Shown here: one piece after another, positions 57,381-57,760 of the stretch
How positions within the stretch are numbered: position 1 is the first letter of the stretch
Layout of the letters: the number at the start of each line of letters is the position of its first letter
From: Escherichia coli
Lineage (GTDB): Bacteria > Pseudomonadota > Gammaproteobacteria > Enterobacterales > Enterobacteriaceae
Length of the DNA stretch: 64,000 bases
Reading direction: 5' to 3' (one strand)
Assembly: GCF_003334305.1 (NCBI RefSeq)
Contig: NZ_QOWS01000007.1
Translations under genes and position numbers: made by a program
The notes under the pieces: generated by a model
Database searches by the model: none
What the model saw: the letters and a program-made list of their open reading frames with translations, nothing else
What the model was told of the DNA's origin: nothing

Positions 57381-57760
57381 AACAACCTCTCTTATAATTA
57401 TGGGTATTCTACGGAAACAATATACCGTGGTGAAGCTAATTTACTCGATTGCTGCGATGACTACCTCCGGGGGACAAACCTTATGTAAATACTATGGTCC
57501 TGCGGTGATAATTTGTATGTGATACACAGCAACATTTCGAGATATTCATACGGCATCTAATACTGATTTAATTCTGGTTAAAATACAGACAGATAACAAG
57601 ATGAATATTCTTAATGTTTACGTTAAAAATGTTTAATATTATTTAATAGTTGTTAATTTGAATACTTCGATAATGTTATATTTCCTGATAATCATTTGCA
57701 GGCAAAATGTTTTCACCCTTAAATGAGTATTTATTCTCATAAATCGAAAAAGGATTCATT

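Follow-up and report, generated by a model that had tools for sequence, protein, structure and literature searches.

The AT-rich spacer between ypfM and yffB in Escherichia coli is very probably a compound divergent promoter region

Introduction

Type-A divergent spacers, as catalogued in the genomic SELEX survey of Shimada et al. (2014, PMC3946193), separate genes that point outward and that each have their own sigma-70 promoter. The spacer between ypfM and yffB is listed in that survey with an RpoD-holoenzyme SELEX peak and with promoters predicted in both directions. The SELEX-chip peak lies at W3110 coordinate 2589272 and is weak, its relative intensity being 0.10. The hexamers TTCACC and TAGAAT are given there for ypfM, and the whole spacer is marked HNS, i.e. 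as bound by H-NS in genomic SELEX in vitro. Promoter activity and H-NS binding of this spacer are already in the literature.

Further information comes from Salmonella. The ypfM mRNA has been described there as STnc250, an Hfq-bound transcript. A Salmonella yffB::gfp fusion spanning -97 to +75 was used by Fröhlich et al. (2016), and in that study each fusion carries the 5′ UTR, counted from the start that Kröger et al. had mapped. In the present work, we analyzed the spacer of an E. coli sequence by comparing it with the corresponding spacers of other enterobacteria, with shuffled sequences of matched composition and with published data.

Results

Location and composition of the spacer

The window, i.e. 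the whole stretch of DNA that was analyzed, is 64 kb long and comes from a non-K-12 E. coli. It is 98.3% identical to MG1655 over an 8 kb alignment, and two positions in the spacer differ from K-12. MG1655 coordinates are obtained by adding 2533486 to the window position, so that the spacer occupies 2590867-2591246 there. A preliminary description of this DNA had placed the spacer between ypfM and yffB, and both the gene names and the boundaries agree exactly with the annotation:

54109-57222, plus strand: acrD (RefSeq)
57321-57380, minus strand: ypfM (RefSeq), encoding 19 aa, MIERELGNWKDFIEVMLRK
57381-57760: the ypfM-yffB spacer, 380 bp
57761-58117, plus strand: yffB (RefSeq), followed by dapE and ypfN

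Five E. coli annotation records (RefSeq), MG1655 included, show no gene between ypfM and yffB. The region is present in all 5426 complete E. coli genomes and is essentially intact in 5412 of them.

The AT-richness of the spacer, which had been pointed out from the sequence alone, is real and notable. The GC content is 31% overall vs. 53% in the window, and it is distributed unevenly, with 40% at positions 57381-57539 and 24% at 57540-57760. The stretch 57558-57757, with 23.5% GC, is the lowest of all 200-bp stretches in the window, the next lowest having 30%.

Comparative anatomy of the spacer

A scan for YffB in species-representative genomes gave 80 loci. Of these, about 70 enterobacterial loci have the divergent arrangement with ypfM upstream of yffB, and the YpfM peptide does not differ among Escherichia, Citrobacter, Kluyvera, Yokenella, Trabulsiella and others. 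Most genera have a spacer of 349-413 bp, with 385-391 bp being very common, while some spacers reach 861 bp or more. A conservation profile was computed from an alignment of 39 enterobacterial spacers of similar length. In this profile, four islands are conserved (57381-57434, 57438-57546, 57672-57684 and the yffB Shine-Dalgarno sequence) while the AT-rich centre varies, and the E. coli spacer can be divided into five parts, namely: the ypfM leader and promoter; about 110 bp of motifs; an AT-rich filler; an extended -10 element; and the yffB 5′ UTR. The features discussed below are:

57381-57399, minus strand: ypfM 5′ leader, about 18-20 nt, with Shine-Dalgarno sequence GAGAGG (complement of CCTCTC at 57386-57391)
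57406-57434, minus strand: ypfM sigma-70 promoter TTCACC-17-TAGAAT, the sole consensus promoter match in the region
57438-57460, no strand assigned: conserved element 1, consensus ATTTAAcCgATTGCTGTGATTG, about -40 to -62 from the predicted ypfM start
57491-57496, no strand assigned: conserved hexamer A(C/A)TATG, seen in the alignments
57511-57546, no strand assigned: conserved 36-bp block, consensus aaATTTTA-TGTGAY-N5-GCAAYATTYTGAAA, a candidate operator or distal ypfM promoter
57545-57572, plus strand: alternative upstream yffB promoter TTCATA-16-TTTAAT, predicted by Shimada et al. 2014 (PMC3946193)
57549-57660, no strand assigned: lineage-variable AT-rich filler, which holds the AATGTTTA pair and the palindrome GAATATTC (57603-57610)
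57672-57684, plus strand: island 3, AATGTTATATTTC, which contains the extended -10 TG-n-TATATT
57674-57682, plus strand: extended -10 TGTTATATT of the predicted yffB-dapE-ypfN promoter (TGn at 57674-57676, TATATT at 57677-57682)
57689-57760, plus strand: predicted yffB 5′ UTR, about 71 nt, with the conserved Shine-Dalgarno sequence AAGGA at 57750-57754 (island 4)

Positions 57550-57670 form the least conserved stretch of the spacer across genera. The central sequence is wholly different between the Escherichia/Citrobacter/Salmonella group and the Enterobacter/Leclercia group, and from about 57549 to 57660 it diverges already within Escherichia. It should be noted that the extreme AT content is confined to Escherichia: the yffB-proximal part has 24-29% GC in this genus vs. 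30-50% elsewhere, with the same gene layout.

The leftward promoter and leader of ypfM

The leftward gene ypfM has a correctly placed -35/-10 pair. Both hexamers of TTCACC-17-TAGAAT are conserved in the 39-spacer alignment, and a scan with a position weight matrix (PWM) places a promoter equally far from the ypfM start codon in 55 of 73 loci. The start site is predicted at about 57398-57400, and the leader, whose length follows from the position of the -10 hexamer, would be about 19 nt long. The leader sequence is nearly invariant among the 39 spacers.

The rightward promoter of yffB

No difference in the extended -10 element TGTTATATT is seen among Escherichia, Citrobacter, Salmonella, Enterobacter, Leclercia, Lelliottia and others, whereas Klebsiella, Yokenella, Trabulsiella and Pluralibacter have GTATTATT or GTATGATT in its place. 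In every case, 63-109 nt separate the element from the yffB ATG downstream. Its -35 hexamer is poor (TTAATT at 18 nt). Two spacers of the Salmonella type, L134 and L109, were recovered from metagenome contigs. The Salmonella start at -97 falls 7-8 nt downstream of TGTTATATT (8 nt past its last base in L134). We infer the start sites in E. coli by extrapolation from motif conservation and from this one Salmonella data point; the yffB start is predicted near 57689-57690. Thus, the rightward gene yffB also has a predicted promoter at the correct position, with a weak -35. The predicted 5′ UTR shows no excess structure when folded (z = 0.72 vs. shuffles).

Conserved motifs linked to ypfM

Upstream of the ypfM core promoter, three motifs are conserved: element 1, the hexamer A(C/A)TATG and the 36-bp block. 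Element 1 is a candidate UP-like or activator site of the ypfM promoter, as judged from its position, and it shares CAGCAAT with the distal block in inverted orientation. The ATG of the A(C/A)TATG hexamer opens only ORFs of 4-6 codons, which are not conserved and are without a Shine-Dalgarno sequence.

The block is the only match to its consensus in the 64-kb window, where 0.03 would be expected by chance. In about 55 loci with spacers of between 292 and 861 bp, it begins 136-152 bp (mostly 137-143 bp) from the start codon of ypfM, but anywhere from 154 to 719 bp separates it from yffB. The fixed distance to ypfM and the variable distance to yffB indicate that the block belongs to ypfM and not to yffB.

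In many genera, the minus strand of the block reads TTCAAA-18-TAAAAT and scores as a promoter with the PWM in 17 of 73 loci. In E. coli, the -10 part of this sequence is degraded to TACAAA, whereas the TGTGAT and GCAAC parts are kept, which speaks for the binding of a protein rather than for a second promoter in this species. A plus-strand promoter was rejected since there is no conserved -10 downstream of the block on that strand. RNAalifold, run on 54 sequences for positions 57425-57550, gives essentially no consensus structure (-3.4 and -0.4 kcal/mol on the two strands). This result led us to reject the block as an RNA element on both strands and, in addition, a variable GC-rich hairpin at 57461-57480 together with long-range pairing between ATTGCTGT and ACAGCAAT. 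The block was also rejected as coding sequence, since it is conserved at all three codon positions, even in species without an overlapping ORF.

We compared the block by eye with the consensus sites of CRP, CytR, Lrp, IHF, PurR, sigma-54, sigma-E, sigma-32, RcsAB, Zur and ArcA. The matches are partial only (11 of 15 positions for Lrp, and one CRP half-site, TGTGA), and we treat them as leads and not as results.

Four main classes of spacing between the block and the yffB -10 are seen (145, 165-166, 175 and 186-187 bp), and they share one helical phase; three loci lie outside these classes, at 46, 275-276 and 356 bp. This phasing hints at a coupling to the yffB promoter, with few independent lineages behind it. 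The block might form, together with element 1, the operator of a transcription factor that controls ypfM and that perhaps couples yffB-dapE to it through looping or bending. We consider this a tentative proposal that is less likely to be right than wrong.

The direct repeat

The preliminary description had drawn attention to a direct repeat in the AT-rich part. The repeat is there, AATGTTTA occurring at 57613-57620 and 57628-57635, 15 bp from start to start, and a third copy that matches at 7 of 8 positions lies at 57706. It does not, however, rise above chance. When the spacer or its AT-rich half is shuffled 2000 times with dinucleotides preserved, at least one exact 8-mer repeated within 30 bp turns up in 22-25% of the shuffled sequences, and the count for the whole window is 4 vs. 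1.9 expected. A tandem or iteron-like array was rejected, as only two exact copies exist, at chance level, and Tandem Repeats Finder reports nothing. The repeat is intact in all five E. coli sequences compared (the source sequence, MG1655, BEN2908, O157:H7 and H105), which are about 99% identical here. Outside E. coli it is lost: E. albertii and Escherichia sp. L002 carry mutations in each of the two copies. A functional role of the repeat is not upheld by either line of evidence. The AATGTTTA pair is real, yet a chance event and not meaningful.

Regulators reported for the Salmonella locus

Several regulators have been connected with yffB in Salmonella. The SdsR small RNA represses yffB::gfp (Fröhlich et al. 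2016). We rejected SdsR pairing in the 5′ UTR, as the best predicted duplex lies in the coding region (+44 to +72) in both species and barely beats shuffles. Expression of yffB is up 2.6-fold in a Salmonella fur mutant, and a Fur box is predicted there at -35 to -18 from the yffB ATG. The best Fur-box match in the E. coli spacer (GATAATGATAATCATTATC) has 13 of 19 positions and lies at 57681-57699. It is equalled in 25% of shuffles of the AT-rich part, it is conserved in Escherichia only, and matches of at least 13/19 number 20 in the window when strands are counted separately (14 distinct positions). A Fur box at the yffB start was rejected as being at chance level. Finally, a weak MarA ChIP peak and a weak marbox are reported at the Salmonella locus. 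Peak and marbox fall at positions 180-194 of the Salmonella spacer, 121-136 bp upstream of the yffB start, and the marbox is far from both starts. A MarA box was rejected in E. coli, where the equivalent of the Salmonella site does not match. The reports on SdsR, Fur and MarA leave the overall picture unchanged.

Alternative readings of the spacer

The yffB promoter could lie further upstream than the extended -10. TTCATA-16-TTTAAT at 57545-57572, proposed by Shimada et al. 2014 (PMC3946193), adjoins the RpoD SELEX peak, and its hexamers are partly conserved in Escherichia and Citrobacter; were yffB transcribed mainly from this site, the AT-rich tract would become a 5′ UTR of about 183 nt. The hexamers are not conserved beyond these two genera, however, their PWM score is low and falls outside the ten best plus-strand matches, and the would-be UTR is neither conserved nor structured. 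The Salmonella start at -97 lies downstream of TGTTATATT and not at this pair of hexamers. We therefore regard a main promoter at this site as unlikely; it may be a minor start. We also rejected a riboswitch or structured leader, be it in the yffB UTR or in the AT-rich tract, as fold z values are 0.2-1.1 and Rfam gives no match. The same folds bear on an unannotated small RNA, which had been suggested as one possible content of so long a spacer. The adjacent ypfM mRNA is the short, Hfq-bound STnc250 transcript, and the block could act as a minus-strand promoter in many genera. Against these points, the single-sequence folds are no more stable than those of shuffles, RNAalifold finds no consensus structure on either strand of 57425-57550, and there is no intrinsic terminator in 57381-57760, the only terminator-like sites lying outside the spacer at 57227-57300. 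A transcript from the putative distal promoter would just run into ypfM. In Rfam, STnc250 (RF01409) matches 57222-57341 on the minus strand with 37.3 bits vs. a gathering score of 42; this match is the 3′ part of the ypfM mRNA and lies outside the spacer, and all other matches are at the level of chance. Taken together, a small RNA encoded in the spacer is very improbable. A further small protein similar to YpfM, also suggested from the sequence, fares no better. Several ORFs of 10-40 codons are present, and we enumerated 14, of which the 11 that lie wholly inside the spacer were compared across species. None of these 11 is conserved across genera, each losing its start or its frame within Escherichia or in the next genera. 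A candidate regulatory upstream ORF of yffB, 57707-57742 on the plus strand, has 11 codons, sits inside the predicted 5′ UTR and is preceded by a weak AGG 5 nt upstream, but its start codon is absent in both other Escherichia species. The ORF at 57481-57549 on the minus strand (22 codons) survives intact in one Citrobacter and in three species of Escherichia, but most genera have a frameshift in it or lack its start. What is conserved of this ORF falls together with the DNA block, and there conservation extends to all three codon positions. RefSeq, moreover, has no gene there in the five records mentioned above. A very small protein or an upstream ORF thus has hardly any likelihood.

Other readings see the AT-rich half as a binding platform. 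It could be a dedicated nucleation or silencing site of H-NS (or of Fis or IHF) that acts on yffB-dapE and/or ypfM, with AATGTTTA aiding the binding. In its favour, 23.5% GC over 200 bp is the minimum of the window, the H-NS nucleation motif is matched at 57667 (TCGATAATGT, 8 of 10 positions), and H-NS binding of the spacer is reported by genomic SELEX. The proposal that the spacer is a regulatory region bound by a nucleoid protein finds support in the literature, all of it in vitro (H-NS SELEX, PMC3946193). In the sequence itself, however, there is no H-NS signature above composition, either in the nucleation motif or in A-tract phasing: at least as many motif matches occur in 61% of shuffles, and the phasing of AA/TT (autocorrelation at lags 10-11) is not significant (p ~0.1). 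Furthermore, the extreme AT-richness is limited to Escherichia, other genera having 30-50% GC with the same layout, the repeat is not conserved outside E. coli, and the H-NS evidence is from in vitro SELEX only. In addition, dapE is an essential housekeeping gene and is an unlikely target of strong silencing. A dedicated H-NS site is a doubtful reading that nonetheless keeps some appreciable likelihood, and any effect of H-NS in vivo is presumptive. The two TGTTTA hexamers within the repeat could also be read by a response regulator that recognizes direct repeats, e.g. PhoP, whose half-site is TGTTTA. TGTTTA is present in two exact copies, and TGTTTA, TGTTAA and TGTTAT follow one another at 57630, 57652 and 57674 with a 22-bp spacing. 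The canonical PhoP box has its (T/G)GTTTA hexamers 5 nt apart, with an 11-bp period, whereas 9 nt lie between those at 57615-57620 and 57630-57635. Neither E. albertii nor Escherichia sp. L002 keeps either copy, the repeat is at chance level for AT-rich DNA, and we found no report in the literature that ties yffB or ypfM to PhoP. A PhoP-type site is extremely unlikely.

Discussion

The spacer is very probably an ordinary compound back-to-back promoter region that serves ypfM on one side and yffB-dapE on the other. On the left, the sigma-70 promoter TTCACC-17-TAGAAT (57434 to 57406) would drive a short ypfM mRNA with a leader of about 19 nt. The motifs at 57438-57546, which are fixed relative to ypfM, would most likely be sites for a regulator, or a second, distal ypfM promoter in some genera. 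On the right, transcription of yffB-dapE-ypfN is predicted to begin near 57689 from the extended -10 TGTTATATT at 57674-57682, which leaves about 71 nt of 5′ UTR. About 100 bp of fast-evolving, very AT-rich DNA lies in between and holds the AATGTTTA pair by chance. The contribution of this AT-rich DNA is likely unspecific, as a spacer upstream of a promoter with a weak -35 and as a substrate of H-NS. The remark in the preliminary description that the spacer is long for a simple promoter can be explained by this arrangement: the length is taken up by two core promoters, about 110 bp of ypfM-linked motifs and the yffB UTR of about 71 nt.

These results have several implications. The position of the yffB-dapE-ypfN promoter is now better supported, and dapE is essential for the synthesis of lysine and peptidoglycan. 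ypfM, a 19-aa gene whose product is identical across many genera, has about 150 bp of conserved upstream DNA, which offers a handle on its control and function. Finally, short exact repeats in DNA of 24% GC need a composition-matched control before they are flagged.

Compared with known systems, the spacer differs from the PhoP box (TGTTTA-N5-TGTTTA), with which it shares the half-site, in having a gap of 9 nt and not 5, and in that its repeat is non-conserved and at chance level. STnc250 (RF01409) is an adjacent transcript: its promoter and leader fill the left end of the spacer, and the Rfam match is wholly outside. As in H-NS-bound, AT-rich promoter regions, e.g. those of proU and bgl and many spacers marked HNS by Shimada et al. 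2014, very low GC goes along with reported binding in H-NS SELEX. Unlike them, the spacer is core-genome housekeeping DNA that was not horizontally acquired, it has no nucleation motif or A-tract phasing above chance, and its AT-richness is not conserved across genera. The predicted yffB promoter resembles extended -10 promoters (TGnTATAAT) in having TG one base before TATATT, a poor -35 and, in Salmonella, a start 7-8 nt downstream; it differs from them in Klebsiella and relatives, where the TG is replaced by CG or AG. A further likeness is to the type-A divergent spacers of Shimada et al. 2014 (PMC3946193), among which this spacer is catalogued: its genes point outward and each has, or is predicted to have, its own sigma-70 promoter. 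The ypfM promoter is identical in the two studies, whereas that of yffB is placed at 57674-57682 here and at 57545-57572 there.

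Organization of the spacer between ypfM and yffB

The conserved 36-bp block (57511-57546) lies at a fixed distance from ypfM, and its separation from the extended -10 element of yffB (57674-57682) falls into four main classes across the loci compared: 145, 165-166, 175 and 186-187 bp. The steps between these classes amount to roughly one or two turns of the helix, so that the phase stays at 7-8.5 within a 10.5-bp turn. As judged from sequence spacing in few independent lineages, the ypfM-linked block and the yffB -10 element may thus be constrained to the same face of the helix.

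Closer to ypfM, its leader contains a perfect hexamer on the opposite strand:

57393-57398, plus strand, TATAAT hexamer within the ypfM leader

This hexamer, which reads TATTAT in most other genera, is positioned back to back with the -10 element of ypfM. It lacks a usable -35 element and is probably a by-product of the Shine-Dalgarno and leader sequence.

The region is disrupted in E. coli F374 (locus L085, NZ_OY754371.1), in which IS1A is inserted directly after the equivalent of window position 57475. This locus lacks what remains of the spacer as well as the 5′ half of yffB, and the dapE gene that comes next is intact; dapE must therefore be expressed there either by read-out from IS1 or from a promoter within yffB. 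More broadly, a full-length match to the region is absent in 14 of 5426 genomes.

A palindrome, GAATATTC, is found at 57603-57610 and takes the form GAAnnTTC in other Escherichia and in Citrobacter; it resembles the core of the RcsAB box. Palindromes of this type are seen again in the middle of the spacer in several lineages, including loci of the Enterobacter group, though the alignment is poor. In the Enterobacter/Lelliottia group (L020, L027, L031, L039, L043, L044, L053 and L070), the centre of the spacer, approximately 243-300 bp from the ypfM ATG, is itself conserved. It includes an imperfect inverted repeat, TTCAGCnTACA...TGTAnGTTGAA, which doubles as an ORF of 12-16 codons, MK(E/D)YSAYSC(S/T)LN. 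This ORF has no Shine-Dalgarno sequence and is shortened to MK* in Leclercia, and neither the inverted repeat nor the ORF is present in E. coli.

In work on tracing the source of E. coli (wastewater, turkey and rat), the intergenic region labelled ypfM came out as one of the best intergenic markers (PMC11267920); its polymorphism within the species evidently carries lineage or niche information. Elsewhere in the window, 42356-42555 (30% GC) ranks second in AT-richness among stretches of 200 bp.

Predicted SdsR pairing in yffB

The best predicted pairing site for SdsR, the sRNA that represses yffB in Salmonella, is the conserved CGCCGTTGGCTGGA, which covers codons 15-22 of yffB (57804-57826). 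In both E. coli and Salmonella (the latter represented by L134, a Salmonella-type locus from a metagenome contig), the predicted site is in the coding region of yffB rather than in its 5′ UTR, and the pairing barely exceeds that of shuffled sequences (p = 0.03-0.08).

Unusual conservation of ypfM and its relation to STnc250

The gap between acrD and ypfM holds two terminator-like hairpins within 57227-57300:

57227-57262, called on the minus strand by the scan, terminator-like hairpin flanked on both sides by A/T runs
57273-57297, called on the plus strand by the scan, terminator-like hairpin

Because A/T runs flank it on both sides, the hairpin at 57227-57262 probably serves as a terminator for acrD and ypfM alike.

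The 19-aa YpfM peptide (57321-57380, minus strand) has the same sequence in many genera (L002-L081). Over these loci, mean nucleotide identity to E. coli is 91% for ypfM versus 74% for yffB, and 79% versus 55% of synonymous third positions, respectively, are identical to E. coli. Such high identity suggests that ypfM is under constraint at the RNA level in addition to that on the peptide. The Rfam family STnc250 (RF01409) matches 57222-57341 on the minus strand, a stretch that takes in the 3′ portion of ypfM along with the 3′ UTR and terminator, with a score of 37.3 bits, below the gathering score of 42 (E = 2.6e-5); the model is 94 nt long and the E. coli copy exceeds it by approximately 26 nt. 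Constraint on ypfM at the RNA level would be consistent with its identity as the Hfq-bound STnc250 transcript, the ypfM mRNA of Salmonella.
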